DNA from: a candidate division CPR3 bacterium GWF2_35_18
Lineage (GTDB): Bacteria > Patescibacteriota > CPR3 > GWF2-35-18
Direction of reading: 5' to 3'
Assembly (NCBI GenBank): GCA_001771135.1
Contig: MESW01000006.1
Span: 4,870 to 68,869 of the forward strand
DNA length: 64,000 bases
The notes beneath the pieces are model-generated. The model did not search any database and was not told where the DNA came from. It saw nothing but the letters and a program-made list of their open reading frames with translations. Shown here one piece after another: positions 12,255 to 41,500 of the stretch (the first letter of the stretch is position 1; each line of letters starts with the position of its first letter). The position numbers were made by a program, and so were the translations under genes.

Positions 12255-12255
12255 A

Positions 12256-18962: not shown

Positions 18963-19206
18963 AAAAGGCTCCTTTGTTTTACGTAGCTAACAATATATCT
19001 TTCTTTTTTCATTCTATCACAACTAACATCTGAATATGCAAATCTGGCGGAGAGGCGTCCTTAATTAAAACTTCGGTATGCTAAAGCAGGGATTTACTTC
19101 GTTAACAAAAATTATTTTGTAACACTCAGTATCTTGATTTTGTATCTGTTCATTAAATTCACAGACAAAATCTAAGTCGAACCGTCGGTTCTTATCGATT
19201 CCTTAG

Positions 19207-19245
19207 CCAGAGACAAAAACATCCAAAGGATGTTCTTGTCTCTGG
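19207..19245. repeat. near-perfect 18-bp inverted repeat (hairpin) abutting the 3' end of tRNA-Ser(GCU)
   Basis: ccagagacaaaaacatcc-aaa-ggatgttcttgtctctgg. The right arm overlaps the tRNA CCA end. Confidence 0.8.
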
Positions 19246-19336
19246 CGGAGAGGCAGGGATTCGAACCCTGGATACCAGTTTTAACCAGTATAACGGTTTA
19301 GCAAACCGCCGCTTTCGGCCACTCAGCCACCTCTCC
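19243..19336 (-). tRNA. tRNA-Ser (anticodon GCU), type II
   Basis: Revcomp GGAGAGG-UG-GCU-GAGUGGCCGAA-AGC…GCGGU-UUGCUAA-ACCGU-long variable arm-CAGGGUUCGAAUCCCUG-CCUCUCC-G-CCA. 94 nt. Confidence 0.85.
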
Positions 19337-21614: not shown

Positions 21615-22131
21615 TAAAATTACTCCAATGTTCGATCGAATAAACAACCAAATCATCAAAATAATTGTAAACATTTTTTTGATTAATCTCATCTCCAAAA
21701 GACAGTACATAAGCGAGATCAACTGTGTACTCATAATATCCATACTTTTTAGTATCTAAAATTTGTTTATGATTATTAAGTATTGCTGTTGAATCTTTTC
21801 CTAAGGAAAGAGAAAACATATTCTTAATAGTGCAACTGGTTATCAAAGTATTTTTATTTTCCAACCTAAAAGCAGTTTTTGAAACATTATCTTTAACTAT
21901 TAAACCTGGAAAAGACGATAGCTCTTTCCTGATTTTATCCTTTTTTCTTCTTTTTTCTTCTTCAGAATTTAGAAAAACTATTAGGATATATTTATTATTT
22001 TGTATTATTTTTACAGAAATTTTATTTTGTGAAAGAATATTGGGAAAAGATTGTTTAACTTCAGACGGCACTTTAAGTAATCGCTTCTTTATGATCTCTT
22101 TTATACGATTTTTATCTATTAATCTTGTCAT
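21607..22131 (-). CDS. hypothetical protein; AT-rich islet gene 1
   Basis: 174 aa, Lys/Asn-rich, no recognisable motif. Co-directional with the next gene and overlaps it by 8 nt. Confidence 0.35.
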   Translation of the reverse strand: MTRLIDKNRIKEIIKKRLLKVPSEVKQSFPNILSQNKISVKIIQNNKYILIVFLNSEEEKRRKKDKIRKELSSFPGLIVKDNVSKTAFRLENKNTLITSCTIKNMFSLSLGKDSTAILNNHKQILDTKKYGYYEYTVDLAYVLSFGDEINQKNVYNYFDDLVVYSIEHWSNFNE

Positions 22132-25840: not shown

Positions 25841-25855
25841 GATAGTAATTGATAA

Positions 25856-26122
25856 TTAGGCTCTGATAGAAATCACTAAAAATAATAAACAAAGGGTATA
25901 AAGAAAATATATCCAAGCGACAATTTTAGTCCATGGAGATAGATTAGTATTTAAAAATTGGTTCATAATCTGCACCTGTCTCACAGTCAAAAAGGCGAAA
26001 AAGAGATAAAACAAAAGAAACACAATCGTTACAATTTTCATAATTCCGATAAAGGAAAAATCTCCTTGAGTAAAAAGGTGAGCGATATTGGTCCAAAATG
26101 TATCTAAAAAATCAATTTTCAT
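25856..26122 (-). CDS. small membrane protein (2 TM)
   Basis: 88 aa, two hydrophobic helices. Overlaps the upstream gene by 4 nt (ATGA). Confidence 0.3.
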   Translation of the reverse strand: MKIDFLDTFWTNIAHLFTQGDFSFIGIMKIVTIVFLLFYLFFAFLTVRQVQIMNQFLNTNLSPWTKIVAWIYFLYTLCLLFLVISIRA

Positions 26123-26718
26123 CTATTCTCCCTAATATCTTCTAATAACTTTCCGATAATCTTGTGCACTTCAGCCGGATCCGGGACCGCTTCAAATTCA
26201 AGATCAGAAAACTCCGCCGCCGTCTGCACCCGGATTAAACCAAAATTAAAAAGGAGAGCAAGTGTTCCCACGGTCTGGTGAGTAATATCCTGCACTTTGG
26301 TCAATTCCGCCTCGGAAACATTCTTGTATAAAATGCTGTGAAAATCTACATCCAAAAGCCTCTTGGTAGTAATCATATTGACGCTATAATACCAGGAAAT
26401 AAAATTGCTAAAGATATATCCGAAAATGAGTAAATACCAAACCGAATAAAGTAAGAAACTGACTGTGGGAGTAATTGAGTTTGTAATATCTTCCGGAAAA
26501 GCTAAACCTTTTAGAGAAGCTAGAATAAAGGGCACAAAAAAAAGGAAGATACTAATTATGACCCATCCCAAATTGGTAACCCAATGTCTTCGCAAAAGAA
26601 GCACCACCTTCTCTTCACTGTCTTGAGTAGCAAAATGGACTTTGGGAGGAAACCAGGCAAAAGAAGTTAGAGGATTAATTGTTGGTTTAAACTTTTCAAG
26701 TGTTTCAAGATTTGACAT
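26119..26718 (-). CDS. membrane protein, possibly bacterial PH-domain (bPH_2/YdbT-like)
   Basis: Two TM helices, then a soluble domain. The WFPPKVHFATQDSEEKVVLLLRRHW segment fits membrane-anchored bPH proteins only loosely. Confidence 0.3.
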   Translation of the reverse strand: MSNLETLEKFKPTINPLTSFAWFPPKVHFATQDSEEKVVLLLRRHWVTNLGWVIISIFLFFVPFILASLKGLAFPEDITNSITPTVSFLLYSVWYLLIFGYIFSNFISWYYSVNMITTKRLLDVDFHSILYKNVSEAELTKVQDITHQTVGTLALLFNFGLIRVQTAAEFSDLEFEAVPDPAEVHKIIGKLLEDIRENR

Positions 26719-26773: not shown

Positions 26774-28576
26774 CTAATTGCTTTGAATATCAAATCTAGA
26801 GCTCCAGATCGCATCGGTCCCCGGAGAACGAAGATTGAAAACAAAAAGAAATCTTCCGGGATCAAGATTGACGTAGGTATCGTCGTAATAAATACGCATG
26901 CTTTCAGTCTGTTTTGCTCCAACTACAACCTCAATCGATTTTATATTGGCAACAACGGTAAGATCAAGTTCGGTTAGTTTTGCTCTCACCTCTTCCGGAG
27001 TAAAACCTCCATTTGCTGAAGAGGGTAAATTATCATTATATTCCTCTGGTAAAAGTGCGGCATTTGCCATATCTGCCACCTCTTCTTTGGAAAGCCAGGG
27101 ATCGTCACCCCAAGATTTGTGATACCAGGGAGAATCTCCATAGCCCGGACCATCAAATGGTTTTCCAGTACTATCAACGTCAATAAGGCTCAAAGCATAC
27201 GGACGATATCCACCCCAAACCTCTTCAGAAGAAAGGGTTGATCCGCCGGCAGTCGAAGCATAATAAGCGGTAATCGGAACTCCGCTTGAGAGCAAGACCA
27301 TTCCTTTTGTCTCAGTCACCGCTTGTGCCCATCTCTCATCTTTGACATGTCCGATAAAGACCTGACAGGCTTGAGTAGTACAAATTGATTTGGCGTTGGG
27401 ATCATTTTTATATTCGGTATAATTTTGATAGTTGGCATAACTAATATAAGCAAGAGCATAACTTCGCGCGGCAATAGCTTGCGCTTTTAAGGCTTCCATT
27501 GACCAAGACGAAGGCATCTCCCCGATTCCTTTTAAATAGAGATCTTCAAAGGAAATCCATCCATAACCGTCAACTTTGATTTTTTCGGGAACCGGATAAG
27601 CGCTAGTTCCTGCGTCCAAACCCGTAATTGTCGTGTTGGCATAATAAGAATGCAAAATCGTTCTCACTGTCTGACCCGCCAAAGCTCTTCCATAAGCACC
27701 ATACTGATTCATTCCTACCCGATGCGGAAAACCATAACTCCAAAAGCTATAAAAATCACCACTTGTTTTCGAGGGAGTTCCTTCCGAGATTACTCCACCA
27801 TTTTGTTCTTTGGAACCAACACTGGTGGAAGCGGCTGCGGCCGCCGCTTTTGCCGCCAAAATCTGTTGTTCTTTGGCTGATAAATTGGCGATATCTTTTG
27901 TAATTCCGGTAAGCTGTGAAGCTAATTGATTTTGCGTATTTCGCGCTGAAGCAATTTGCGAATTCAAATATACTTCTTGTGCTTCCAAGTGAACTTTTTG
28001 ATTTTCCAAGTCGATTTTATCTTCAGCCATTTGGGTCTTATCTCTCTCTAGAGCCGCCCGTTCCCGATTCAAAACGTCAATTTTATCCTTAAGATCAGTA
28101 ATATTCTTTTTATCTTCGTTGATCACGTTCATGCGGTAAACATATTCTGTATTTACCTTGTTGAAATCATCGGAAAGAAATAAATAGCTTAAGGGTGGGT
28201 ATTGAGAGTTTTTATAAAGATCGCGGATTCGCGCGGAGATTAAAGAAGTTTGATAATTCACTTCTTCCTCTCGAGTTTTGATATTGGTCTCATTTTCACT
28301 AATTTCCTGCTGTTTGGCGTTCAGTTTGGCGACGGCATTCGCGTACTCACTTCGCGCTAAATAAAGATCATTGGTCATCTGCGAAAGCTGAGAGGCTAAC
28401 GTACCTTCATATTGCTTCGCTTGAAAAAGTTGACTCTCTGTTTGTTGTTTTTCCTGTTCCTTAGCTTCTTTTTCTTTGACCGTATCATCAAGCTCATCCG
28501 CAAAGGTATACGGAATAACCAGGTTTAAAAGCAAAGAGATCGCGACAAAAATGGTAAGCAGTTTTCTAGTTTTCAT
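26774..28576 (-). CDS. secreted coiled-coil protein with a C-terminal SpoIID/LytB domain (cell-wall remodelling)
   Basis: Signal peptide. About 230 aa of coiled coil, as in PcsB-type hydrolase regulators. SpoIID/LytB signature …HRVGMNQYGAYGRALAGQTVRTILHSYYANTTI…. Confidence 0.7.
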   Translation of the reverse strand: MKTRKLLTIFVAISLLLNLVIPYTFADELDDTVKEKEAKEQEKQQTESQLFQAKQYEGTLASQLSQMTNDLYLARSEYANAVAKLNAKQQEISENETNIKTREEEVNYQTSLISARIRDLYKNSQYPPLSYLFLSDDFNKVNTEYVYRMNVINEDKKNITDLKDKIDVLNRERAALERDKTQMAEDKIDLENQKVHLEAQEVYLNSQIASARNTQNQLASQLTGITKDIANLSAKEQQILAAKAAAAAASTSVGSKEQNGGVISEGTPSKTSGDFYSFWSYGFPHRVGMNQYGAYGRALAGQTVRTILHSYYANTTITGLDAGTSAYPVPEKIKVDGYGWISFEDLYLKGIGEMPSSWSMEALKAQAIAARSYALAYISYANYQNYTEYKNDPNAKSICTTQACQVFIGHVKDERWAQAVTETKGMVLLSSGVPITAYYASTAGGSTLSSEEVWGGYRPYALSLIDVDSTGKPFDGPGYGDSPWYHKSWGDDPWLSKEEVADMANAALLPEEYNDNLPSSANGGFTPEEVRAKLTELDLTVVANIKSIEVVVGAKQTESMRIYYDDTYVNLDPGRFLFVFNLRSPGTDAIWSSRFDIQSN

Positions 28577-28625: not shown

Positions 28626-30551
28626 TTAAAAATCTTTAAATTTAAAGACAAAGATACAACCCTCTTCATTATAATTATCCAAACAGTAATCGTGAGTTAC
28701 ATAGCTTAATTCTAAAGCCTCATTTTGTTGTAATTCGGCAATTGAAAATGTATGTTCTCGCATCGGTTGCAATTTGGAATCCCAGACAAAATACTGCAGA
28801 TGGTTTTCTTTCACAATCTGCTGCAAACTGGAATCCTCTTTCAATTTATCCAGATTACTAAGGACTGTATAGCGATTTTGAAACTGATCTTCGGAAATAC
28901 TTTGCAATCCTTTATAGGGAAAGGTCAAAGGAATTTCGGTGAGAATCCCGATCCAATCGACAAAATCACTGGATCGATAATCAATTCCCCCAGAATAGAG
29001 ATAATGAATAAAAATGTCATTTAGAATCATCGTTTCAGGAAGAATCTCTTGAGATTGAAAGTAATCATAAACCGCAAAGATCTCTCTCTCCGGTGTTCGA
29101 ATAAACATCGTCGTGCGAAAAACTACCGCTTCTACAATTAGAGTTACAATCGAAAAAGTAAGAATCAGATAACTTGTCAGTGACTTCAAAAAAACACTCG
29201 GTGTTTTTTTAAACCACTCCCAGATAAAGTTCAAACCAAAAGCAGCCATCACACAGCTTGAGAAAATCATAAATTCGGTAATTCTCTGGATATCAAATAA
29301 AGGAAAGAAAAGGTTATATATTGACCCAAAAAGGTTAACAAAGACAACATCAATATAAATAAAAAGCACCAAAAGAAAACTAAAGATAACAAAAATAATT
29401 GGCTTTTTAGATGACTCCGATTGGCGATAATTTTTTTTAATCTGTGTTAACCCAGTCATAATAAAGACCGGAAAAACAATATTCACTAAAATAAAAAAAT
29501 AATTTAACCAATAAGAAAAAAAATTATTTATCTTCTCTCCGAAACCCAAGCTGGTATTGATCTGTATCTGAACTAAAGTACTTAGAACAAAATCAACTCC
29601 TCGGAACTGAATCAATCTTTGAATTACAAAAATTAAAAGTACTTGAAGTAAAAGTAAGCTTATATTTTGCCATTTGATTAACTTTTTCCCCTGGGTAAGG
29701 AAATAAATTCCCACGAAAATCAGAGTCATAAAGAATTCAGGAGAATGAATAAAAAATAAACCCAAACCTAAAAATAAAGTTAAGACTGTTAACTTTAAAC
29801 TTTTTGTATGAAGGGTTTTTATAAAAACAGCTAGATACTGCCACATAAAAGTAATCCCCCACAAAAAAGATAAACCTCCCCAAACACTTGGTCGAACTGG
29901 AAACAAAGAAAATAAGGGAGAAACAAAAGCGGTTAATAAAGAAATTCTACGATTTTTAAATACCGTGTTTGTAAGCAGATACAAAGAAATCGGCATCATA
30001 GAAACAATCAAAATGGTGGAAATATTGAGATTTTTTTCGATTGGATAATTGGTAACTTGATGAATTAAAGCTACAAAAGCATGCAATCCAAAAGGATAAA
30101 ATCTCTCAAAACCGAAACCGGTTTCAGTGATCTTTTTTACCAAACTGTAGTGAAAAGTAGTGTCATCCGCCGGAAGCGGAAAAGGATTCCCATAATATGT
30201 ATAGATCTGGACTAGCAGTAGTATTAACGTGGGAATAATTACAAAAATCCAGTCTTTGGAAAAATGAAATGAGCTGTTTTTAAGTGATTGCAACACAAAG
30301 CCTAATTGTCGATATTTAAAAAGGAGGTAAAAAACTAAAACAACGCAAAAGGAAATTAGAACTGTCTGCAATCTAAACGGGATTGCCATTTTTGAATAAA
30401 CGAAAAACAAAATTGCGTAAAAGGAAAGCGAGAGAAAAGGCACTAATGAAATTAGCAACTTATCAAATTTTTGCTTGTCTACCAAAAACCCCAATAGCAA
30501 TAGTCCTGGAAAAGTTAATAATAAAATAATAATTAAGATAGAAATAGTCAT
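28626..30551 (-). CDS. polytopic membrane protein, GT-C-fold glycosyltransferase-like (paralog 1)
   Basis: 12 or more TM helices. First extracytoplasmic loop carries PLPADDTTFHYSLVKKITETGFGFERFYPFGLHAFVALIHQ (a DD motif as in GT-C enzymes). Soluble C-terminal domain of about 150 aa. Paralogous to 30557..32191. Confidence 0.4.
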   Translation of the reverse strand: MTISILIIILLLTFPGLLLLGFLVDKQKFDKLLISLVPFLSLSFYAILFFVYSKMAIPFRLQTVLISFCVVLVFYLLFKYRQLGFVLQSLKNSSFHFSKDWIFVIIPTLILLLVQIYTYYGNPFPLPADDTTFHYSLVKKITETGFGFERFYPFGLHAFVALIHQVTNYPIEKNLNISTILIVSMMPISLYLLTNTVFKNRRISLLTAFVSPLFSLFPVRPSVWGGLSFLWGITFMWQYLAVFIKTLHTKSLKLTVLTLFLGLGLFFIHSPEFFMTLIFVGIYFLTQGKKLIKWQNISLLLLQVLLIFVIQRLIQFRGVDFVLSTLVQIQINTSLGFGEKINNFFSYWLNYFFILVNIVFPVFIMTGLTQIKKNYRQSESSKKPIIFVIFSFLLVLFIYIDVVFVNLFGSIYNLFFPLFDIQRITEFMIFSSCVMAAFGLNFIWEWFKKTPSVFLKSLTSYLILTFSIVTLIVEAVVFRTTMFIRTPEREIFAVYDYFQSQEILPETMILNDIFIHYLYSGGIDYRSSDFVDWIGILTEIPLTFPYKGLQSISEDQFQNRYTVLSNLDKLKEDSSLQQIVKENHLQYFVWDSKLQPMREHTFSIAELQQNEALELSYVTHDYCLDNYNEEGCIFVFKFKDF

Positions 30552-30556
30552 GGTAT

Positions 30557-32191
30557 TTAAAAATCACTATTTATCTGAAATATGTAAACGCAGTTTTCAA
30601 AAACTTCTTCATTACATTGAGCTGAAGAAGAGTATATTTGACTAAAGATGTCCTTTTGCTTTAAAAAATTCATGTTTAGATATTCATGATGATGATTCTG
30701 CCTTACATTTTCAGACCAATAAACATATTGAAGATTCTCTTCCTGAATATATTGTTGCACCAGCTTATCCTGCTTTATTGATTGAATATTTTCAAGAACA
30801 TAAAGTCTTTTTTGCATCTTTTCATTACTCGCAGTCTCAATATAGGGAAACGTAACTTTTGATTTTGTCAGAACATTTATCCAACTGGCTGAATCAACAG
30901 CTCTATATACTTTTTGTCCAGCACTATAACCCCAACAAATATCATTTAAAATAAGTCCCTCCTCCAAATTATTATCAATCCATTTTATCGATTCTACAAC
31001 CTCTTTGGTTGGAGAATTTTTAATGACGTTAGTTTTCAACACAATTGAAAATAAAATAATCGGAACTAAAACAAAAACAATAGTTAGATATAACCACATT
31101 GATTTTTGGAGATGGCGATCTGAATTGCGATACCAGGTAATAAAACTTTGTAGCCCGAAGCTCGCAAAATAAGCAATCGGAAAGGTAAAAAATTCAAAAA
31201 AACGAAACTGATCTGCCCAAGGAAAGGTAAATTTATACAGGAAATGGAACAAATGCAAAGTGCTTATATCTAAATATATTAATAATAGTAAAACTAAAAA
31301 AGTAAAAGTTATTTTATCGGAAGACTCCAAATTTTTTCTATGTAACCTCGTTAAGATTCCCCAAATGCAAAAAACTAGCAGTGTTAGATTCACTGAGGAA
31401 ACGAGGTAACCTGGACCCATAAGGATAAAATCCTGTAACCATTTGAAAAAAGAGGTCGGAAGATAGGACAATCCCCAAAACCCAACCGTAACTGGAAAAA
31501 TAGTATGAATCAGATAGTAAATCAAAGTAAAAACGCTCAGGTTTAAAATTATCCATAAGTATAGATTAATGTCTTTGATAGATTTTTTCCAATTAACGAT
31601 AAAGTAAATAGTTAAGAATAAAGCGGAAGTAACAAGTTCTGGACTGTGAATTAAAAATAATCCTACCGCCAAGATAACACTAATCAGAATTTTAATGATT
31701 TTTTTACTCTCCAGGGAAGAAATTGTAAATCCGAGATAAAACCATAAAAACGTAAGTCCCCACAGAAAAGGATAGCCTCCCCATCTATAAGGACTAAGTC
31801 CAAAAACACAAGCAAGGGGTGTTATTATTGCAATCAGTAAGGAAACTTTCTCGTTTTTGGTCAAAACTTTAGCTAAATAATAAAAAGAAAACGGTAAAAG
31901 AGAAACTACAAATACTGTTGTTCCAAACAAAAGATACTCTATGGGAATATTCGTAATCTGATATAAAAACGCCACAATAATATGCATCAGAAAAGGGTAA
32001 AAACCCTGCATATCAATTCTTCCTAAAGCAACGATCTCCTTTATATATTCATAATGGATAATCGTGTCATCTCCGGTTAAAGGAAAAGAGGTTACCGAAA
32101 AAGAATATAGCTGTATCGATGCTAAAAATAAAGCAATTACGGTTAAAATCAGAATATTTTTTCTTTGGTTTAAAAAAGTTATTAGATTCAT
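30557..32191 (-). CDS. polytopic membrane protein, GT-C-fold glycosyltransferase-like (paralog 2)
   Basis: Same architecture. First-loop motif FPLTGDDTIIHYEYIKEIVALGRIDMQGFYPFLMHIIVAFLYQ aligns with that of paralog 1. Confidence 0.4.
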   Translation of the reverse strand: MNLITFLNQRKNILILTVIALFLASIQLYSFSVTSFPLTGDDTIIHYEYIKEIVALGRIDMQGFYPFLMHIIVAFLYQITNIPIEYLLFGTTVFVVSLLPFSFYYLAKVLTKNEKVSLLIAIITPLACVFGLSPYRWGGYPFLWGLTFLWFYLGFTISSLESKKIIKILISVILAVGLFLIHSPELVTSALFLTIYFIVNWKKSIKDINLYLWIILNLSVFTLIYYLIHTIFPVTVGFWGLSYLPTSFFKWLQDFILMGPGYLVSSVNLTLLVFCIWGILTRLHRKNLESSDKITFTFLVLLLLIYLDISTLHLFHFLYKFTFPWADQFRFFEFFTFPIAYFASFGLQSFITWYRNSDRHLQKSMWLYLTIVFVLVPIILFSIVLKTNVIKNSPTKEVVESIKWIDNNLEEGLILNDICWGYSAGQKVYRAVDSASWINVLTKSKVTFPYIETASNEKMQKRLYVLENIQSIKQDKLVQQYIQEENLQYVYWSENVRQNHHHEYLNMNFLKQKDIFSQIYSSSAQCNEEVFENCVYIFQINSDF

Positions 32192-33063
32192 AAATCATTC
32201 TTCGTAAACACAATCTCGATACTTTCTTTATTAAAAAATATTAAGGGAATAAATAAGGGTGAGGTTAGAATAAAAGCTAATTCTCGAGCTCCAATCAGCT
32301 TTACCTTTTGATAAATATATCTTTGCATCAAATAAAGAAGATATAAATAGTCAGAAATTGGAAAGTGTTTATTGGCTGTTACTTTGAAACCCGATTTTTC
32401 AAGTAATAAAATCAGACCTCGATGGGAAAAATGGTTAAGGTGTCTCGGAATATCAGCGTTCGATGGCCATTCTGCTTTAAAAGTTCGAGACCAAAAACCA
32501 TCAAATCTCGGTAATTCTAGATACAATATCCCATCATCTTTCAAGATTCTCTTCAGCTCTTTTAATATTTGTTCAGGAATTTCTAAATGTTCTAATACAT
32601 GATTCAAAGTAATCACATCAAAAAACTGATCCGCATATTTCAACTTTTCACTCTTATAGCAATCAACTTTTAAATCTCTTTTTTTACTTAATTTATAAGC
32701 AGAAAGACTTGCATCAATACCATAACGATCCCATCGCTTTACTGAAAATGTTTCCAAAAAACTGCCGTCTCCACACCCAAAATCAAGAATTTTCCCCTGT
32801 TTTTTATACTTTGATATTTTCTTTTGTCTGGGAGTATATATAAAAAGTTTTTTGATTCTAAATAAAGTTTTTTGAATAACACCCTCCCCTTGATAGTATT
32901 GCTCTGGATAGAATTCATTATCTGGAGACTGACGGGGAAAAGTAAATCCAGAGCGACATATCGGACAGATTTGAATGCGATAAATTCCTATCGAAGCGTA
33001 CTCGCTTAAGGAATTATTACAGCATAAACATTGTCGACCTTTTTTACCATTATGTTTAACCAA
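32188..33063 (-). CDS. class I SAM-dependent methyltransferase with an N-terminal zinc ribbon
   Basis: Zn ribbon CLCCNN…CPICRSG. Motif I ILDFGCGDGSFLE. Post-I acidic residue and motif II present. Confidence 0.8.
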   Translation of the reverse strand: MVKHNGKKGRQCLCCNNSLSEYASIGIYRIQICPICRSGFTFPRQSPDNEFYPEQYYQGEGVIQKTLFRIKKLFIYTPRQKKISKYKKQGKILDFGCGDGSFLETFSVKRWDRYGIDASLSAYKLSKKRDLKVDCYKSEKLKYADQFFDVITLNHVLEHLEIPEQILKELKRILKDDGILYLELPRFDGFWSRTFKAEWPSNADIPRHLNHFSHRGLILLLEKSGFKVTANKHFPISDYLYLLYLMQRYIYQKVKLIGARELAFILTSPLFIPLIFFNKESIEIVFTKNDL

Positions 33064-33898
33064 TAGTAGTTCCTTTATAAGTGAAAAAGTTAAATAATTT
33101 AATAATAATTTTATTAGGAAGTAACAATAGTAGCATTTCTAAAAGATATCGCCAAACACCTCTAAAGCTGATAAATGGTTTTTTAAAAATCCACTTTTTC
33201 TTAATTTTTAAGGTTAAAATTAGCATTCTCTTTACTCTATTTAACTTGTAACTTTGTTCTGATATCCGGTATTGAATTAGAAAGTCAGGTAAATTTACAA
33301 GTTGATACTTATGAAAAGCAAATTGAAACCAAAGGTCGTATTCTTCCGCTCCGGGAAAGTTGGAATCATATTTTCCGCCCAAAGTTTTCATATCTGATAC
33401 TCTAATCATCGTCGCTGGATGACAAAGTGGAGATCTAACTGGTAATTCAGATATGATTTCTTTTGAACTGACTTTGTAATTTCTGACTGTAAGTAATTCT
33501 CCTGTTTCGTTAATAATCTGAACCTGTCCCCCAACAGCCGCATAATCTGGGTTAGATTCTAAAAAAGCCACCTGTTTTTCAATTCGTTGTTTTATACAAA
33601 TATCATCCTGATCTATAACCATATAATATTTACCCCGAAGATGAGACAAGCCTACATTGCGGTTTTTGGCAATTCCGAGGTTAACGGGGTTTTGATAAGA
33701 CTTAATTCTTTTATCTCCACCTGCATATTTTTGAATAATTTGGAGACTGGAATCAGTAGAGCAATCATCGATAACAATAAATTCAAAGTTAGAATAGGAT
33801 TGAGACAAAATACTCTCAATCGTAAATTGAAGATATTTTTCGCCGTTATATACCGGCATGACAATTGAAACTAAAGGTTTATTGAAATCATTTTTCAT
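33056..33898 (-). CDS. glycosyltransferase family 2
   Basis: VSIVMPVYNGEKYLQFTIESILSQSYSNFEFIVIDDCSTDSS and a DxD-type motif downstream. Confidence 0.85.
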   Translation of the reverse strand: MKNDFNKPLVSIVMPVYNGEKYLQFTIESILSQSYSNFEFIVIDDCSTDSSLQIIQKYAGGDKRIKSYQNPVNLGIAKNRNVGLSHLRGKYYMVIDQDDICIKQRIEKQVAFLESNPDYAAVGGQVQIINETGELLTVRNYKVSSKEIISELPVRSPLCHPATMIRVSDMKTLGGKYDSNFPGAEEYDLWFQFAFHKYQLVNLPDFLIQYRISEQSYKLNRVKRMLILTLKIKKKWIFKKPFISFRGVWRYLLEMLLLLLPNKIIIKLFNFFTYKGTTIG

Positions 33899-34208
33899 GC
33901 AAAGCCTTCTTCCTAACGACCGTTTCTATTCTTTTTTCAATCTTCTCCAATTTCAAAATTATTCGGAAAACCAAATAGAATAAAACTACGATTGATAAAT
34001 AAACAACCGAATCAATTCCTCGTTGAATGTTTATCAAGTTAGCAATCAATACCGTTACGTCTGCGAACCAAACTACCAAAACAACGGCACTCCAAATACA
34101 TGACCAAAATATGAATGACAGAATTGAAAGCTGATGTTTTTTATAATTCACCCAAATTTCGAGTAGCACGGCGGCTACAAAAATGGAAACAACAATTTGT
34201 AGAAACAT
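33888..34208 (-). CDS. small 3-TM membrane protein (DUF2304-like partner of polyprenyl-phosphate GT2 enzymes)
   Basis: 106 aa, three TM helices. Sits between two GT2 genes, an arrangement commonly seen downstream of DPM1-like synthases. Confidence 0.35.
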   Translation of the reverse strand: MFLQIVVSIFVAAVLLEIWVNYKKHQLSILSFIFWSCIWSAVVLVVWFADVTVLIANLINIQRGIDSVVYLSIVVLFYLVFRIILKLEKIEKRIETVVRKKALHEK

Positions 34209-34209
34209 T

Positions 34210-34893
34210 TTATAACTCCTTAATTAAAAGTTTATATATAGTTTCAAAGCCTTTGATAAGTCCTTGTCCTTTAGACATTGAATATTTCGTATATACAGGA
34301 ACGATTATGACTTCTTGATATTTCAGCTTGTTTTTCTTCATCTCTTTCAAAATCTCCAAACTGATTTCCATATCGCGGGAAAGTAGCTTCATTTTTGATA
34401 AAGCCTCTTTTTTGTAACCGCGTAATCCGCATTGAGAATCACGAGTCGTGACTCCAGACAAAAAAGTATTTAAGATGTTTGCGACAGTCACAAATTTTTT
34501 CCGTAAAAAAGGAGTCTTATGTTTATTTGTATCTACTCGAATTCCAAGTACGACTTCACATTTTTCTTGATGAAGCCTTTGATTAACTTTTATAATATCA
34601 CTAGTGAGATGCTGACTATCAGCATCACAAGTAATCACATGTTTATAGTTGTGATCTAAAGCATATTGAAATCCAGTCCTCAAGGCCGCTCCATATCCAA
34701 GATTAACTAGGTGTCTCACATATTGAATTTTATAATTTTTGAGAACATTATTTGTCCGATCAGTACTACCATCATCAACGACAAGAATACTTCTAAAACC
34801 ACCATTTTGGAGATCTTTCACGACATCGCCAATAGTTTTCTCCTCATTAAAAGCGGGAATAATAATTAAAGTATCTTGATTCATTGTTTGCAT
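34210..34893 (-). CDS. GT2 polyprenyl-phosphate sugar synthase (DPM1/GtrB-like, e.g. dolichyl/undecaprenyl-phosphate mannose or glucose synthase)
   Basis: LIIIPAFNEEKTIGDVVKDL…ILVVDDGSTDRT…YGAALRTGF…CDADSQH. About 227 aa, typical of DPM1-like enzymes. Confidence 0.85.
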   Translation of the reverse strand: MQTMNQDTLIIIPAFNEEKTIGDVVKDLQNGGFRSILVVDDGSTDRTNNVLKNYKIQYVRHLVNLGYGAALRTGFQYALDHNYKHVITCDADSQHLTSDIIKVNQRLHQEKCEVVLGIRVDTNKHKTPFLRKKFVTVANILNTFLSGVTTRDSQCGLRGYKKEALSKMKLLSRDMEISLEILKEMKKNKLKYQEVIIVPVYTKYSMSKGQGLIKGFETIYKLLIKEL

Positions 34894-35071
34894 TTTACAT
34901 GAAAAAGTATCTTTTTGGAAAATTTAAAGCTTTAGATATGAAATCACTATTATATTTGATCGTTTCGGCTCCATCCCAAAATTCTTGACAAAATTATAAC
35001 AATACTTTAACCTATCTATAGAGTTTATCTTTAATTCAGCTATAAAATAACTAATTCAGAGGGGGGTGAGA

Positions 35072-35473
35072 ATGAACTCTATGAAAAACTTAAGTAAAAA
35101 GGCTGGTCTCATTCTTGCTCAGGTAGTTACTGTTTTTTCAATTGCAGCCACTCAAATTTATGCCGCTACTATCTCTCAACCTATTTCTTCAGCAACACTT
35201 ACCGTCGGTGGTGTTGTTAACTTAATTGTAAAAATAGTTTTTGGAGTCGGTATTTTAATTTGTGTCATCTTCCTCGTTTTCTATGGTATTAAATATATTA
35301 CCGCCGGTGATGATGTAAAAGCCATTGAAGGGGCTAGAAAAGGAATCACAGGAGCAATTATTGGTTTAATTGTTATCCTATTAACCTTTGCAATTATTAA
35401 GTTAGTTGCAACTTTCTTGGGTGTTAATGGAGGAGATATCTTTAGTATTCTTCCTGACAGCTATAGCTTCTAA
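35072..35473 (+). CDS. small secreted 'pilin-like' protein, paralog 1 (signal peptide plus two-helix hairpin with the conserved YITAGDD…K…AIIGLIV motif)
   Basis: GGGGGG RBS 5 nt upstream of the ATG. Signal peptide …AATQIYA. Mature part: hydrophobic helix (NLIVKIVFGVGILICVIFLVFYGIKYITAGDDVKAIEGARKGITGAIIGLIVILLTFAIIKLV). The topology is as in TrbC/VirB2-type pilins. Paralogous to 37292..37930 and 37940..38479. Confidence 0.5.
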   Translation: MNSMKNLSKKAGLILAQVVTVFSIAATQIYAATISQPISSATLTVGGVVNLIVKIVFGVGILICVIFLVFYGIKYITAGDDVKAIEGARKGITGAIIGLIVILLTFAIIKLVATFLGVNGGDIFSILPDSYSF

Positions 35474-35496
35474 CAAATTTTGTACTTGTCGAAAAA

Positions 35497-35527
35497 CCCC
35501 GGTCAAACCCGGGGTTTTTCTTTTTAG
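35497..35527 (+). terminator. rho-independent terminator
   Basis: AAAACCCCGGgtcaaaCCCGGGGTTTTTCTTTTT directly after the paralog-1 stop. Confidence 0.7.
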
Positions 35528-35750
35528 ACCACATTTTATACCTATACAACTCCAATTTGCAATTCAATTTGTTGTTATATGGGTTAATACTCAACTACTT
35601 TTGTTACAAATTAGAGTTAGTTGAGTATATAATAATCTTAACCTCTTTTTCTTGACGGAACTACTCTTCCCTGCTAAAACTTATTTACAGACATCACACT
35701 TCAAATCAAACCATAAAAGTTGCTAGTGATATCTTAATAGACAAACATTT

Positions 35751-37187
35751 ATGCTGAAGAAATATTTACCCTACTTTTTATTGACAATTATTGTCCTTAC
35801 TTTTTCTTTGACACTTCTGTTGAACCTACAGTATCCACGCGAAATCTGTAATGATGAGTTTTATTATGTACCAGCCGGTCAAACGATCTGGCAAACCCCA
35901 AACGAACCGAACCTTGAACATCATCCTCCTCTCGCAAAATATCTAATCGGTTTTGGAATTATGACTGTAGGAAATTATTCAATTGGTTGGAGACTGATTC
36001 CGGCTTTATTTGGAATTATCGGTTTAATCCTAGTCTTTTTTCTTACTAAAGAAGTTTTATCTCTATCAGCAAATGGAGATCGAAAGGTAACGATTTTTTT
36101 CTCCCTCTTTGCTCCATTTTTACTTGCTTTTGATTTTCTCTATTTCACGATGTCTCGACAGGCGATGCTGGATATCTTTGTTACAACATTTTTAATCGCA
36201 ACCTCTTTATTCATTTGGAAATATATTCAGACGCAACGTAAAATCTTTATTATCTTACTGGCAATATTTTTTGGTTTAGCTCTCGCTTCCAAGTGGACGA
36301 CTATTCTTTTTGCGCCTTTATTTCTATTTTTAACTCTTAAATATACTAAAACCAGAAAAATTCAAAAGAAAAGCTTTAAGATAGTGATGTTTGAATATCT
36401 GCTGATTGGATTAATTGGTGCGACTGTTTATCTTTGTACTTATATCCCCTATCTCCTAAAAAATAATGCTGGTGAATTTATGATTCTGCAAAAAGATATT
36501 TTGGTAAGAATGTTATATACAAAAGAGACAAACGGAGGAGGAACTTCACCATTTAATACAATCTTCTGGCCTTTCTTTCCTAGCAACACCCTCTCCTGCT
36601 ATTTTGACTATGAAGATAATGTTAATCCTCACAGCTTATCGATTATCAGTAATCCTCTAATAATCTGGTTCTTTTGGCCAGTTTTGATCTACAGTTTCTA
36701 TCAAGCTTTCAAGAAAAAAGAGATAAAGCGCTTTTTTATCCCGATAATTATTATTTGTCTCTATCTTCCCTGGCTTGCGGTTGAACGAGAAAAATATTTT
36801 TATTACATGACCCCTGTTATCCCTTTTTTATGTATTTTGATTGCTCAAATGGTCTTTGATTTTATTACAACAAAAGGAAAAAGTGGTTTGAACAACATAA
36901 AACCTCAAAACCCTATTTTTCTCCCAAATAAAGACCTCTTAGATAAAATCATCATCTTTCTTTATAAATTACAGGAAAAAACCCATAAAGGTAAACTCTT
37001 CCAAAAACTTTCGAAAAAAGCAGATACTCTGATTGCAAATAAATTACTAATATATATATTAGTAATTTGTTATCTACTATTAGTTATTTTATTATTCATC
37101 CTCTATTATCCTCTTTTAAATGGTTTACCCGTTTCCGAAAGCTATCGAAATACAGTTACTTTTTTTTGGCCGTTTTTATTTAAATAA
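35751..37187 (+). CDS. GT-C glycosyltransferase of the PMT/ArnT type (GT39/GT83; dolichyl/undecaprenyl-phosphate-sugar : protein or lipid transferase)
   Basis: First-loop motif DEFYYVPAGQTIWQT…LEHHPPLAKYLIGFGI (DE…HPPL.K is diagnostic of the PMT_2/ArnT families). 11 or more TM helices. Confidence 0.75.
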   Translation: MLKKYLPYFLLTIIVLTFSLTLLLNLQYPREICNDEFYYVPAGQTIWQTPNEPNLEHHPPLAKYLIGFGIMTVGNYSIGWRLIPALFGIIGLILVFFLTKEVLSLSANGDRKVTIFFSLFAPFLLAFDFLYFTMSRQAMLDIFVTTFLIATSLFIWKYIQTQRKIFIILLAIFFGLALASKWTTILFAPLFLFLTLKYTKTRKIQKKSFKIVMFEYLLIGLIGATVYLCTYIPYLLKNNAGEFMILQKDILVRMLYTKETNGGGTSPFNTIFWPFFPSNTLSCYFDYEDNVNPHSLSIISNPLIIWFFWPVLIYSFYQAFKKKEIKRFFIPIIIICLYLPWLAVEREKYFYYMTPVIPFLCILIAQMVFDFITTKGKSGLNNIKPQNPIFLPNKDLLDKIIIFLYKLQEKTHKGKLFQKLSKKADTLIANKLLIYILVICYLLLVILLFILYYPLLNGLPVSESYRNTVTFFWPFLFK

Positions 37188-37291
37188 CTTTTTAAAGAAA
37201 GATCGCATTTCCACTTGCCCCCTAATGTTTCCTATGCTAATATTCTTTTGTAAGGGAATTCCATACTTTTGAACTCAAACAAATTGAGCAT

Positions 37292-37930
37292 ATGAATAAT
37301 AAACTACCACTGAAACTCGCTGTAAATATTGTTATTACAATTGTTTCTTTATTATTCTTTTTTACCTTTATCCCTATCAACAACACTGCTTCCGCTGATG
37401 GCCCCTGTTTATGCGTTTCCGGAAAATGTGCTGGTTGTTCTGCGGCGGTAAATGATCTTGCGTGTGGACTAAATACAGATATCTGTGACAATGCGCAGAA
37501 AAGATACTCCTGTGAACATACTTTATTATACCAATCTCCTAGCAACCCAACCTTTGCCGCTCCAGGAAGATATCTTTGCAGTATCAGCTCTGATCCTGCT
37601 GATCGATATCCAACCACTTTAAATATGGCTTTAAAGGGTTCCTGGTCAGAGGTTTTCAAAACCTGCTTCTGCTCCGCCGGTCAAATGATTCAAAAGGTTA
37701 TTGATATCGCGATCTATTCGATCTCCGGTATTGCCCTAATAGTTTTAGCTTTGGGTGCGATTAAATATATTACCGCTCAAAACAATCCCGATAAAATCAT
37801 CGAGGCTAAAGACACAATTTTGGCTGGAATTGTAGGCCTTATTTTAGTTCTTTTCAGCCTAGCAATTATCAATCTTTTTCAGGGACAGCTTCCAGGTAGC
37901 TGGGGAATAAACTTTTTAAATATACCTTAA
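37292..37930 (+). CDS. small secreted 'pilin-like' protein, paralog 2, with a Cys-rich N-terminal domain
   Basis: Signal/TM MNNKLPLKLAVNIVITIVSLLFFFTFIPI. Cys-rich module DGPCLCVSGKCAGCSAAVNDLACGLNTDICDNAQKRYSCEH. C-terminal conserved IKYITAQNNPDKIIEAKDTILAGIVGLILVLFSLAII. Confidence 0.5.
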   Translation: MNNKLPLKLAVNIVITIVSLLFFFTFIPINNTASADGPCLCVSGKCAGCSAAVNDLACGLNTDICDNAQKRYSCEHTLLYQSPSNPTFAAPGRYLCSISSDPADRYPTTLNMALKGSWSEVFKTCFCSAGQMIQKVIDIAIYSISGIALIVLALGAIKYITAQNNPDKIIEAKDTILAGIVGLILVLFSLAIINLFQGQLPGSWGINFLNIP

Positions 37931-37939
37931 GCATAAAAT

Positions 37940-38479
37940 ATGAAACGTTTTACCATTAAAATCACTAAAATAATCTTAATGCTTTCATTACTCATTATTC
38001 CTCTGAGTAGCATTCTACAAAATCCGACACTGGCTGCCTGTACCTGTATAAATGATTTATGTGTTGCTGGAGCAGCCGGAGATTGTATCGCTTCTCGTGC
38101 TGGTGCTCCTTGTAAATATGACAATGACTGTTCAGTTCTTTCTGATGTTAACTGTACTGCTTGCAGTATTATTACCTTTGTTTTTAAAGTTATTCTTCCT
38201 TGGACTTTTGGTATTGGAATTTTAGCCGCGGTTGTTTTTCTAGTCATTGGCGGTATCCGTTACATAACAGCCGGTGATGATCCCAAAAAAATATCTGATG
38301 CTAAAGGGACTGTTACCTGGGCGGTAATCGGACTTGTCATTCTCATTATAGCCGGATCGATTGTTCGTCTTATATGGTTATTCTTTGGATTTGAAGAAGG
38401 AAAAATATTCTTAATCCCCACGACAACTGCTGACATACCAGGTCAGGAACCTGTCTTAGATTGTATCTTGTGTGAATAA
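37940..38479 (+). CDS. small secreted 'pilin-like' protein, paralog 3, with a Cys-rich N-terminal domain
   Basis: Signal peptide …NPTLA. Cys-rich module ACTCINDLCVAGAAGDCIASRAGAPCKYDNDCSVLSDVNCTAC. C-terminal conserved IRYITAGDDPKKISDAKGTVTWAVIGLVILIIAGSIV. Ends in a CILCE tail. Confidence 0.5.
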   Translation: MKRFTIKITKIILMLSLLIIPLSSILQNPTLAACTCINDLCVAGAAGDCIASRAGAPCKYDNDCSVLSDVNCTACSIITFVFKVILPWTFGIGILAAVVFLVIGGIRYITAGDDPKKISDAKGTVTWAVIGLVILIIAGSIVRLIWLFFGFEEGKIFLIPTTTADIPGQEPVLDCILCE

Positions 38480-38584: not shown

Positions 38585-41500
38585 ATGAAGAAAAAACTGC
38601 TTAAATTATTTCCATTCTTAGTCATTATTGCGACATTCCTTTCCCTATCGCAACCACTTTTTTCACCGGCTTTAATTGAGGCCAATCCTCCTGCAGATGT
38701 TTTTACCGGTCAAATTATCCCCGCTTTTATAGGTAACGAATATGATCCCTCTGTTGCTTTTCAGGAATTAGCCGGCTCGACAGTCTATGTTTTTGCGTAT
38801 GACAACTGGGAAGCAGCCTCTGATAGAATTGTTGTGGGAAATAAAGCAATTAAAACTCAGATAAGGGCTGATGGTTCTTTCCAGGTGATGGGACTTCCAC
38901 ATGCTTCTTATTATGGAGTATATTTTCCTTACGACCAATATGGTCCTTATGAACCACGAAATGGTAGTGGTACAGAATATTCTTATAGCTGTTCCTTTCC
39001 TTCCCCTCCACTGGGATCATGTGACGCCATTTGGGGAGGAAATGCCCCTGTTTATCCTATCCCTGGATTGGATGATTACTGCTGTGTTCCTCCGACTCGA
39101 GTAGCAAATACGATCAAAAATACTCCTTTCCGTGCTCCAGAACCAGATGATAATATTATCGATGTCTTTTCTTATGCTCAAGCTATATATAATGGAACCT
39201 CTCTTATTCCTACCCAAATAGCCGATGAATTTATCAAACCTGAAGGCAAGGCAATCTTCGTTACTTCAAATAATAAACTCGATATTGAAAACCATATCAA
39301 TGTTTTTCCCGTAGTTCCAACCTCAGTTTTAAAAATAAAAATTGATACTGAACAGTATGGAAATAGTATCGAAAATAGTGATAGAAGTCAGCTAAAACTT
39401 GGTTATGCAATCGCACACCGTCCGGTTTCAGTGACTGCAACTAGGATAGGATATTACCGTATTGAAATGTGTACTAATATCTTTGGGATACCCTGGGATT
39501 GTGGAATCGATTATGGTACAAAATATCTACCAATTGGTGGCCCAGCAATTACGGGAAGAACTGATGAAAATGGAAACTTTAAAGCCTATGCTCCTTCAGG
39601 ATATTATCATATTAAATATGTCTTTGAAGATGGAACTGAGAATATGGCTTTTCGAGAGATTGATGCCTTGGGAGAAAATCCTGAACCAGCCGACTCTAAT
39701 TTTGGAGTAACTACGGCTCTTTTAAAATCATTGTCTCAATGGAAAACTGATCCTACTGATACCTATATAGAAGACAAGCCTCAAAACGTAATAGACCCTC
39801 CTCTATACAAAGTTTATCGTAAAGGAGTAAGTATTTGGGGTTCAGTTACTAGACCATTTGTAGTTAAAGATAATAACCGCAGTCAATTCAATATACCAGT
39901 CTCTACGTTTTATACGGGAAATGATGGCTCTGATACAGGAGGACAAAGCAATACAATGCCAGATTTAGCGGTCTATACAGAAACGAACTATTCCGCGATT
40001 GATTTGGGAGTAGAGGTAAAACAAGATTTTGAAGCTGTAAATATGTTTAATAACTCCGGAGTTATTTCAGCAGACCATGATGATAACTATTGTGTAACGA
40101 ATAAAAATGCTTGTAACTTTTCCACTGTCAATAAATATGGGATTTTTTATATGCGTACCTCAGAAGCATATTCTTTTATTAATGGTAAAATAAGATTAGC
40201 CGGTTATAACTCAGCAACGAATGAAGTCTTTTTAGACAGTCTACCCCTCTATCCTGATGTTGGCAGTACTGATTATATTGAACCCCAACCACAAGCCCTA
40301 CAAGGATTAATAAGTGGACCAAATAGTTCATATAGTTATAACTTTTCCACAAAAAAACATGATAATAGAGGTATTTACGCAACTGTAAGAGATAATAGAG
40401 GACTGGCTGTACCTGGAGCTCAAGTTACTATTGCTCCTAATGAACCCGATCTAAAAAGCAGTAGTGTCGCTCAAACACAAGGAATTAGTTTATTAACTGA
40501 TGCTGATGGATCAGTGTATCTTTCTCCTCACGTCTTCTCTGAAAACGCAGAATTAATGACAGATTCGGCAACCTGTAACGGTTCTGATGATAGTGTTGCT
40601 GAAAATGGATATACCTTAATAGCTTCTCAAGGAGATACCTTTAAAGCTTCTCTTGATCTTACCAAAGATCAGATTTGTGATTCTATTGACGCGCAACAAT
40701 CTGTTGAAATTGCCAGTATTAAGGGAAAAAATGTCTACACTAACGAACCAGGAATGATTCAATTAGCCAAAGCATTACAGACAGATAATATTTTTACGGT
40801 AAGCGCCGCGGAAACCGAATCTGCTTGCCAAATATATAAACAAGATAGTAGGACGGTCGCTCCCTATGTCCCAAATGATCCAGTGGCAAACGAACAAGAA
40901 TGTGTGAATCTTTATGGATATTTTCTTTGTACACCAGACCCATTTGTTACGATACAAGGAGAATTTTTTGGCGGTGTTTCCGAAAATGTGATAGTTTTGG
41001 CTGCAGGTGATGCTTCTGGAAGCTATCGATCGACAGAAATTATTAAAGAAGAAGTTATTCCTAATCCGGAAACAACTCTTCATTCATCATCTGGATTTGG
41101 TGGTTTCTATGATACTACTAATAAAAAATTATATATTCACATTCCCTGCGCCTGGAAATCAGCTCAACTGAAAATAGAGGCTGGTGAGGAAAAAACAGAT
41201 AACTCTCAAGGAGATGTTGAACTTACAGTTATCGAACAGATCCGAGTTTATCTCATTCAATTCGGTGCAAATTTAGCCAAAGGTTTTGCTGGCGCAAGAG
41301 ATGCAGTTGACATTGGTGGGAGCTTTGATTACGACGAAGCTGTTGAAGAGATTGATGAAGTAGCAGAATCAGGTATCGACTCAATCATAAATAAAGGCCT
41401 TTCTGAGCGTCATTTTATAAAAGGTGATGCCCGAAAAGATGAAATGCAAGTCGCTATCTCAGAAACAAACGTTAGTGGTACACCCCCCAGCTATACCATA

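Follow-up and report, generated by a model that had tools for sequence, protein, structure and literature searches.

Organization of the locus

The window analysed here is a 64,000-nucleotide stretch of chromosomal DNA from candidate division CPR3 bacterium GWF2_35_18, an uncultured Candidate Phyla Radiation (CPR) bacterium from Rifle groundwater. It carries a glycosylation gene cluster next to, and partly inside, an array of pilin genes. The cluster consists of two modules. Module A (35072-38479, plus strand) holds three VirB2/TrbC-type pilin genes, with a gene for a PMT-like glycosyltransferase of the GT-C class between pilin 1 and pilins 2 and 3. Module B (28626-34893, minus strand) comprises six genes running from 34893 down to 28626. 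With junctions of -11 to +5 bp, it is a tightly packed operon. It encodes a polyprenyl-phosphate sugar synthase of the glycosyltransferase 2 (GT2) type, a DUF2304 protein, a second GT2, a methyltransferase and two DUF6541 membrane proteins (Table 1).

The open reading frames (ORFs) named in a first-pass annotation of this DNA were all present where it had placed them, and independent gene callers on public contigs agreed. The region's proteins also occur identically on public contigs of GWF2_35_18. The position of the PMT-like gene between pilin paralog 1 and paralogs 2 and 3 (37292-38479) had been correctly described.

Table 1 Features of the glycosylation and pilin gene cluster, with window positions, strand and supporting evidence.
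Feature	Position	Strand	Evidence
SpoIID-domain protein, coiled-coil N-terminus	26774..28576	-	Pfam SpoIID 3.1e-17; synteny anchor gene
DUF6541 paralog A, 641 aa	28626..30551	-	PF20176 3.5e-27
DUF6541 paralog B, 544 aa	30557..32191	-	PF20176 2.2e-22
S-adenosylmethionine (SAM)-dependent methyltransferase	32188..33063	-	Methyltransf_23 1.6e-26
Leloir-type GT2 glycosyltransferase, 280 aa	33056..33898	-	Glycos_transf_2 1.1e-37
DUF2304 protein, GacJ/Rv3632 family, 106 aa, 3 transmembrane helices	33888..34208	-	PF10066 2.8e-18, full length
GT2 polyprenyl-phosphate sugar synthase, GacI/PpgS type, 227 aa	34210..34893	-	Pfam GT2 2.3e-25; NCBIfam PpgS 3.2e-43
Divergent intergenic region between module B and pilin 1, 178 bp	34894..35071		Gene coordinates
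Pilin 1, VirB2/TrbC-type T4SS pilin, 133 aa	35072..35473	+	PF18895 9.3e-8, 32.5 bits (gathering score 26.6)
Intrinsic-terminator-like hairpin directly 3' of pilin 1	35491..35520	+	12-bp stem, 7 GC pairs, T-run
PMT-like GT-C (GT39/PMT family), 478 aa	35751..37187	+	PMT_2 46.3 bits (gathering score 26.1), PMT 35 bits (22.7)
Pilin 2, T4SS pilin, 212 aa, 10 Cys	37292..37930	+	PF18895 27.5 bits (gathering score 26.6)
Pilin 3, T4SS pilin, 179 aa, 10 Cys	37940..38479	+	PF18895 44.5 bits (gathering score 26.6); TrbC 0.003
1689-aa protein (the "giant adhesin" of the first-pass annotation)	38585..43654	+	Transmembrane prediction; no family match

The PMT-like enzyme

The membrane glycosyltransferase of module A had initially been described as PMT/ArnT-type. 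Its PMT side was borne out, with both Pfam PMT_2 and PMT matched over their gathering scores. When the family profile was compared with the PDB, Pmt enzymes came first (yeast Pmt1 5.4e-30, Pmt4 1.2e-29, Chaetomium Pmt4 6.1e-29, Pmt2 4.7e-17), whereas ArnT was matched at 1.5e-3. No ArnT model appeared among the NCBIfam matches either, and an ArnT (GT83) identity was rejected. The N-terminal PMT half and the C-terminal four-helix (4TM) half of the profile both aligned to Pmt1 and Pmt4.

Sequence motifs were in place as well. A DE motif in loop 1 (D35-E36) was invariant in 11 homologs and aligned to the DE of yeast Pmt1, and H58-P59-P60 of the HPPL motif was invariant across homologs. The PMT_4TMC family was matched by the window protein at 18.6 bits, below its gathering score of 32.4, and the homologs P0005-P0011 carry PF16192. 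An AlphaFold2 model, built from a shallow alignment and of medium confidence (pLDDT 73.6), matched GT-C structures in Foldseek, with AglB at 1.5e-6 and the best TM-score to CtPmt4 (0.58/0.56). Identity to solved PMTs was ~15%. The CPR3 proteins carry an insert of ~60 aa before the last transmembrane helices, and the window protein has no MIR domain; bacterial Pmt is not known to have this domain either.

Pilins and candidate acceptor sites

All three pilins matched the Pfam type IV secretion system (T4SS) pilin family T4SS_pilin (PF18895) over the gathering score, and each has a signal peptide and two transmembrane helices. The first-pass annotation had called them pilin-like. Identity as PilA-type pilins was rejected, the class III prepilin site (G|F-T-L-I-E-type motif) being missing in all three, and PF18895 places them with the VirB2/TrbC type.

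In pilin 1, a short predicted mature N-terminal tail, ATISQPISSATLTVGG, lies between the signal peptide and the two transmembrane helices. Six of its 16 residues are Ser or Thr, and similar tails were found in the related loci L007 and L020. Going by what is known of VirB2-type pili, the tail would be exposed at the surface. Pilin 2 has a Cys-rich N-terminal extension of ~100 aa, and pilin 3 has a Cys-rich extension too. N-x-S/T sequons are few in the pilins.

Pilins and giant adhesin had been proposed as Ser/Thr-rich substrates. Among these proteins, only the pilin 1 tail was Ser/Thr-rich. The ectodomain of the 1689-aa protein contained 14.9% Ser+Thr, compared with 11.6 +/- 2.6% for 45 window proteins. 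Mucin-like tracts were found in neither the pilins nor the giant protein, where no stretch of 30 residues exceeded a Ser/Thr/Pro fraction of 0.47.

A strong terminator-like hairpin follows pilin 1 directly, and hairpins were present at the same site in L007 and L020. With the hairpin behind it, pilin 1 resembles a gene for a major pilin that is expressed separately and at a high level. Pilin 2 follows the PMT gene at a distance of 104 bp.

Gene order in relatives

Evidence on gene adjacency came from four lineages, namely the window, L007, L011/L012 and L020; few relatives were present in the public collections searched. The first-pass annotation had suggested a check of synteny in relatives, and synteny with pilin genes was conserved in L007, L011/L012 and L020.

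L007, the second CPR3 lineage, has a PMT 60% identical to that of the window. Its gene order is SpoIID, a single DUF6541 gene, methyltransferase, GT2, GT2, DUF2304 and GT2, and then, divergently, pilin 1, a GIY-YIG gene, PMT, pilin 2, pilin 3 (59% identity), a 1741-aa protein, a 520-aa protein and a giant M23 protein. The module B and pilin units diverge across only 178 bp, as they do in the window. The inserted gene between pilin 1 and PMT (8278-8553 of L007) is a 91-aa ORF with a GIY-YIG nuclease domain; L007 also carries two Leloir GT2 genes. In L011/L012 (PMT 43%), a transposase-like fragment precedes PMT, and a pilin 2 ortholog follows it. In L020, from a candidate division WWE3 bacterium (PMT 34%, E 1e-58), a SpoIID ortholog (48%) stands divergently beside a pilin 1 ortholog (59%), followed by the PMT ortholog and unrelated genes.

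The PMT gene thus stays beside pilin genes in four lineages although its surroundings change, by presence or absence of module B, the GIY-YIG insertion, the transposase fragment and AbiE-like genes. In three of the lineages, it is followed by a pilin 2 ortholog. A scan of genome contigs with close PMT orthologs gave nothing, and a scan of metagenomes gave one already known locus.

The pilin neighborhood could nevertheless be inherited gene order with no functional tie. The PMT-like enzyme would then be a general O-glycosyltransferase of secreted proteins, like actinobacterial Pmt, or would act on a non-protein component of the envelope. We consider this rather unlikely. Actinobacterial Pmt works on many Sec substrates. 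The order SpoIID-pilin 1-PMT is common to CPR3 and WWE3 and may be ancestral, the hairpin after pilin 1 fits such an arrangement, and distant homologs occur in cell-wall contexts (LytR-CpsA-Psr, FemAB) or unrelated ones. Against this stands the persistence of the adjacency down to 34% identity, despite rearrangement on both sides: upstream, a 6.3-kb operon was gained or lost, and downstream there are either different genes or the retained pilins 2 and 3. The succession of PMT and pilin 2 in three lineages argues in the same direction.

Two loci with distant PMT homologs (26-29% identity), L021 (62-1075) and L022 (2238-2513), were inspected by eye and have suggestive neighbors. In L021, the gene upstream of the PMT homolog abuts it, and the N-terminal hydrophobic segment of its product recalls type IV pseudopilins. 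The gene downstream of the homolog in L022 codes for a secreted protein whose N-terminus is rich in Thr, Ser, Pro and Ala.

The synthase and its operon partners

The assignment of the 34210-34893 product of module B as a polyprenyl-phosphate sugar synthase was supported. Its best NCBIfam match was PpgS, a polyprenyl-P-N-acetylgalactosamine (GalNAc) synthase, at 147.8 bits and almost end to end (residues 7-224 on model positions 1-221 of 226). The equivalog cut-off is 370 bits, so the protein is a relative and not an equivalog, and GalNAc specificity cannot be assumed. AglJ was the second-best match (88 bits). The best solved relatives in the PDB were the dolichyl-phosphate-mannose (Dol-P-Man) synthase (DPMS) of Pyrococcus (6.1e-8) and ArnC (1e-6). 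The synthase has no predicted transmembrane helix.

The adjoining DUF2304 gene, 1 bp away, had been overlooked. Its family includes GacJ and Rv3632. These are small proteins of the membrane, and GacI, a synthase of N-acetylglucosamine (GlcNAc)-P-undecaprenol, and PpgS are bound and stimulated by them (Rush et al., bioRxiv 10.1101/180810). The label "DPM1-like" used at first was therefore right in kind, and from sequence the specific architecture is that of GacI/PpgS, whose characterised members make N-acetylhexosamine (HexNAc) donors. Mannose, the sugar originally proposed, does not agree with this kinship, since the closest characterised synthases make HexNAc-P-polyprenol. Judged from these nearest relatives, the sugar loaded by the module B synthase is probably a HexNAc.

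The Leloir GT2 resembles EpsE, TuaG and chondroitin synthase and ends in a hydrophobic helix. It matched NCBIfam EpsE at 8.9e-41, under the cut-off, and AglG-type and PglI-type matches also appeared; its best solved relatives were chondroitin synthase (3.6e-20, PDB) and GalT1. The methyltransferase combines an N-terminal Cys4 zinc ribbon with one C-terminal hydrophobic helix (residues 259-277). In L006, a locus from metagenome assembly JGI 3300025081 with flanks 99-100% identical to the window, a deletion of ~40 bp splits this gene into two ORFs (6478-7313, corresponding to window 32188-33063). Either this is a variant strain in which the methyltransferase is inactivated, or the deletion is an artefact of assembly.

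No second polyprenyl-phosphate sugar synthase was found in the 64-kb window. A candidate second GacI/GacJ-like pair at 11934-12945 was rejected, as these genes encode MscL and a DNA alkylation repair protein.

The DUF6541 paralogs

The two adjacent membrane proteins at the distal end of module B are true paralogs, as first described, with 33% identity over ~550 residues (E = 2e-79). They share a DD motif just after a transmembrane helix, at residues 129-130 in A and 41-42 in B. Residues D130, H134, Y152 and H157 were invariant in 44 DUF6541 homologs, and D129-D130 in the close family. Paralog B is a short form without the first three transmembrane helices of A, and A is predicted to end in an extracytoplasmic alpha/beta domain.

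Structural modelling covered paralog A (AlphaFold2, pLDDT 72.6, pTM 0.79). In a Foldseek search of the PDB, all 18 matches at E<=0.001 were GT-C enzymes, among them STT3 (6.6e-8, TM-score ~0.50), AglB, PglB and DPY19; AftA and ArnT followed at 5e-3 to 7e-3. D130 lies in the loop after a transmembrane helix in the model. On the basis of the model, paralog A is predicted to be a membrane glycosyltransferase of the GT-C_A fold, and the fold of B was taken from its 33% identity to A. The early proposal that both are GT-C enzymes was thus supported over its alternative, Wzy-type polymerases, and the synthase operon encodes its own GT-C-fold transferases, A by model and B by homology.

Relatives of paralog A are scarce and distant (102 of 1.84 billion representatives at E<=1e-3). 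A word-indexed homolog search returned only the query itself, and a 44-sequence profile found 14 proteins. The UniRef name of A is "Glycosyltransferase RgtA/B/C/D-like domain-containing", and P0120, annotated as PMT_2, matched the DUF6541 profile at 2.9e-14. Between DUF6541 and the PMT-like family, hhalign gave a probability of 4%, and we claim no homology at the sequence level. The gene contexts of P0123, P0120, P0114, P0006 and P0008 were uninformative, and a literature search for DUF6541 found none.

A tandem duplication had been proposed for the pair. Their paralogy holds, but a recent duplication was rejected: A groups with long-form homologs and B with the short-form homolog P0017, both from other organisms, and L007, the relative at 60%, has one copy. 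The duplication is old.

Independent support for DUF6541-type enzymes as GT-C partners of GacI/GacJ-type synthases comes from the gene set of L014, an unrelated metagenomic locus. Within a polysaccharide biosynthesis cluster, it has four consecutive genes for a GT2 that is 35% identical to the window synthase, a DUF2304 protein, a small EamA-like transporter and a DUF6541-related GT-C (hhalign 98.5%, E 2e-15, 595 columns).

The Foldseek ranking also bears on whether module B is an Agl-like oligosaccharide pathway. Such a pathway would start with an AglJ-like step, continue with AglG-like extension and AglP-like methylation, and end with the DUF6541 proteins acting as oligosaccharyltransferases (OSTs) that transfer the glycan en bloc onto surface proteins. 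The top matches of the DUF6541 model were indeed the catalytic OST subunits STT3, AglB and PglB, over 570-740 aligned columns. To this can be added the AglJ match of the synthase, the AglG- and PglI-type matches of the 280-aa GT2 and the putative sugar methyltransferase in the operon. We nevertheless regard this pathway as very improbable. TM-scores were only ~0.5, other GT-C_A enzymes (DPY19, AftA, ArnT) matched too, and the match to the isolated C-terminal domain of AglB was not significant (E 2.1). The WWDxG motif is in neither paralog. In L014, the homolog is part of a polysaccharide cluster laid out like a Gtr system, and the pilins have few sequons. OST identity was rejected for both paralogs, which contain no W[WYF]DxG or WW[DE] motif.

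One pathway or two systems

The first-pass annotation had joined the synthase and the PMT-like enzyme into one two-step route. Both enzyme types are present, and such a route is possible. Its genes are arranged differently from what the proposal implies: the PMT gene belongs to the pilin unit on the opposite strand, the synthase is in an operon with DUF2304 and DUF6541, and the WWE3 locus has the pilin-PMT pair without a synthase operon next to it on the 6.5-kb contig. In full, the single pathway would have the synthase make polyprenyl-P-mannose, the PMT-like enzyme O-mannosylate the pilins and the giant adhesin, and the DUF6541 paralogs serve as extra GT-Cs of the same route.

The PMT family uses Dol-P-Man or polyprenyl-P-Man as donor. 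A single pathway would agree with this, with Dol-P-Man synthase as best solved relative of the synthase, and with the window offering no other synthase of the kind. The 178-bp spacing of the two divergent units in both CPR3 lineages also speaks for it. We consider it rather unlikely all the same. The PpgS kinship and the DUF2304 partner point to the HexNAc class of GacI/PpgS, the synthase already has operon partners in the DUF6541 GT-Cs, and the proposed substrates are not Ser/Thr-rich. In L020, moreover, pilin 1-PMT stands directly beside SpoIID, without module B or any synthase operon on the 6.5-kb contig. From this arrangement, it follows that the two modules are separable. Module B is either a CPR3 lineage-specific insertion or was lost in WWE3.

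Starting from the gene identities, the family and fold assignments, the operon structure and the synteny described above, we infer the sugar, all acceptors and any sharing of a donor. With about even confidence, we favour two adjacent but separable extracytoplasmic glycosylation systems, namely a PMT-like enzyme that O-glycosylates exposed pilin segments and a module B of the Gtr/GacIJL type. In module B, the 227-aa GT2, activated by its DUF2304 partner, would work on the cytoplasmic side of the membrane and join a sugar (probably a HexNAc) to polyprenyl phosphate. Extension or modification, either of the lipid-linked sugar or of the acceptor, may be the part of the Leloir GT2 and the methyltransferase. 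Once flipped, the sugar would be moved by the two DUF6541 GT-C enzymes to surface acceptors, either a wall glycopolymer or proteins. In module A, the PMT-family enzyme would take a sugar from a flipped polyprenyl-phosphate-sugar donor and transfer it to Ser/Thr in exposed parts of the pilins while these are leaving the membrane. The Ser/Thr-rich mature tail of pilin 1 and the extensions of pilins 2 and 3 are candidate sites, with the neighboring giant surface proteins as possible further targets. The donor used in module A may also come from module B.

The narrower proposal, in which CPR3 and WWE3 bacteria have a pilin-linked enzyme of the GT39/PMT family dedicated to O-glycosylating their VirB2-type pilins, is put forward tentatively, as possible rather than probable. 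Secondarily, the same reading would make DUF6541 a new GT-C family working with GacI/GacJ-type synthases.

Several points weigh against the two-system reading. Acceptors cannot be read from sequence. Overall, the pilins are not Ser/Thr-rich, at 12.3-13.3% Ser+Thr compared with the 11.6 +/- 2.6% of the 45 window proteins. Co-transcription of the PMT gene with pilin 1 is not evident because a terminator-like hairpin separates them in three lineages. The adjacency was seen in only four lineages, and SpoIID-pilin 1-PMT could have been inherited as a block; PMT homologs at a greater distance (25-30% identity) do not have T4SS pilins as neighbors. The top NCBIfam match of the PMT-like protein, Pmt at 76.9 bits, was far under the equivalog cut-off of 800, which makes it a distant member and not an equivalog. 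The GT-C fold of DUF6541 was called from a medium-confidence model built on a 14-sequence alignment, and neither sequence nor profile of DUF6541 matched a solved structure in the PDB. Flippase families (GtrA, Wzx, MATE, SMR/EamA) were not found among the ORFs of 23.5-52.6 kb, though the gene may lie elsewhere. Finally, according to Beltran et al. (PMC9905601), glycosylation had not been described for conjugation pili of bacteria, and on archaeal ones they saw only diffuse density.

Relation to known systems

Module B shares its three-part scheme with two characterised systems. In GacI/GacJ/GacL of S. pyogenes, which adds the GlcNAc side chain of the group A carbohydrate, a GT2 of ~230 aa without transmembrane helices is likewise encoded next to a DUF2304 protein and works with a GT-C acting outside the membrane. 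PpgS/Rv3632/Rv3779 of M. tuberculosis, which places galactosamine (GalN) on arabinogalactan, follows the same scheme around a polyprenyl-P-HexNAc maker. In contrast to both, the GT-C component of module B is DUF6541, in two paralogs, the operon adds a Leloir GT2 and a methyltransferase, and the host is a CPR bacterium. A Wzx-like flippase gene of the GacK type, present in the Gac system, is missing from the module B locus.

The logic of lipid-P-sugar synthase, flipping and GT-C transfer to a surface glycan is also that of Gtr-type systems (GtrA/GtrB/Gtr*, CsbB/GtcA/YfhO and the GT136 pentofuranose systems; Kelly et al. 2024, PMC11127046). In the module B locus no flippase was found, whereas the related L014 has an EamA-like candidate. 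Unlike GtrB, the module B synthase has no C-terminal transmembrane helices and has a DUF2304 partner instead.

The PMT-like protein shares with yeast Pmt1/2/4 and actinobacterial Pmt (Rv1002c) the GT-C fold and the loop-1 DE motif, and its family profile aligns to Pmt1/Pmt4 in both halves. It differs from the characterised PMTs in its place inside a VirB2-type pilin array, its insert, its low identity to solved ones and its PMT_4TMC score, which is under the gathering score. A membrane glycosyltransferase gene beside its pilin gene, with lipid-linked donors and action on the outer side of the membrane, is known from the type IV pilus enzymes TfpW (a GT-C using D-arabinofuranose) and PilO/TfpO/PglL (Pseudomonas, Neisseria). 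Those enzymes act on PilA-type pilins, whereas here the pilins are of the VirB2/TrbC type and the enzyme is of a GT39-like family. A paper on the cyanobacterial pilin glycosyltransferase Ogt made no mention of PMT or GT-C.

Passages of PMC12102498 describe T4SS components, VirB2-like pilin arrays among them, as widespread in CPR/Patescibacteria and, in the single strain tested, as essential to epibiotic growth. The window has three such pilins, about 21-24 kb from dnaA. In the passages searched, the genes interrupting these arrays are not identified as glycosyltransferases, and glycosyltransferases are unmentioned there.

If a PMT-family enzyme does modify these pilins, protein O-glycosylation would reach conjugative-type pili, for which it is so far undescribed in bacteria. 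In these putative epibionts, pilin glycans could tune host recognition, or the evasion of phages and host. The pili would also offer a concrete target for structural work, as extra pilus density, and for heterologous reconstitution. For DUF6541, a family without known function, placement in the GT-C fold and the link with GacI/GacJ-type synthases provide a testable role. The natural annotation as one pathway is corrected by separating the conserved pair of pilin and PMT genes from the lipid-linked-sugar operon, which is lineage-specific.

Large neighboring proteins and genomic setting

Downstream of the pilins, the 1689-aa protein has a signal peptide or transmembrane helix, an ectodomain of ~1000 aa, a block of 6-8 transmembrane helices and a long charged C-terminal tail. 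By topology alone it is like an extended VirB6, but VirB6/TrbL was not matched in it by any Pfam or NCBIfam model. VirB4, AAA_10 and TrbL had no matches among the window ORFs scanned, and assignments of the large neighbors to VirB6 or VirB4 were rejected. As the window has neither VirB4 nor a recognisable VirB6, "T4SS" is used here for an array of VirB2-type pilins and the large surface proteins associated with it.

A 522-aa protein without family match (43838-45406, plus strand) follows the 1689-aa protein, and both are kept in L007. Next comes a secreted 1688-aa protein (45544-50610, plus strand) with 82 Cys, 16.1% Ser+Thr and a C-terminal M23 peptidase domain; L007 keeps it 3' of its pilins, too. 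The protein may serve the pilin/T4SS apparatus in a VirB1-like way, by cutting the cell wall.

On the other side of the cluster, 3' of SpoIID and on the same strand (23498-26718), lie genes for three proteins, one of 199 aa with two transmembrane helices, one with DUF5657 and one of 780 aa that gave weak signals of a Kelch/NHL beta-propeller. With gaps of 15-55 bp, they may be co-transcribed with module B. Sigma-70-type promoter matches in 34894-35071 were not above chance, and structured RNAs were looked for in the region and not found.

The region is flanked by housekeeping genes, with sigma-70, dnaG, smpB and tmRNA on one side and dnaA-rnpA-yidC-jag (59.5-63.4 kb) on the other. The distance from the pilins to dnaA fits the near-origin location of T4SS components that passages of PMC12102498 report for some Patescibacteria. 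Beside dnaA, the G+C content drops to 23.7% (58001-60000), compared with ~35% for the window, and this may be a candidate replication origin.

A second surface-glycan cluster lies near dnaA (53440-59283, minus strand). It encodes a 1035-aa protein in which an NAD-dependent epimerase/dehydratase is fused to DUF4012, a chain-length protein of the Wzz-like kind, a PEMT-like methyltransferase and a protein of the Wzy_C/O-antigen-ligase family, which could be a polymerase or a PglL-like O-oligosaccharyltransferase. Next to tmRNA and smpB, a 272-aa protein (20925-21743, minus strand) has a Shedu SduA C-terminal nuclease domain (PF14082, 1.7e-7) and is a possible anti-phage defence gene product. A 1006-aa protein with a GGDEF domain is encoded at 14723-17743 (minus strand). 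Six tRNA genes were found, three for Ser and two for Arg within 14483-19336 and one for Asn at 3801.

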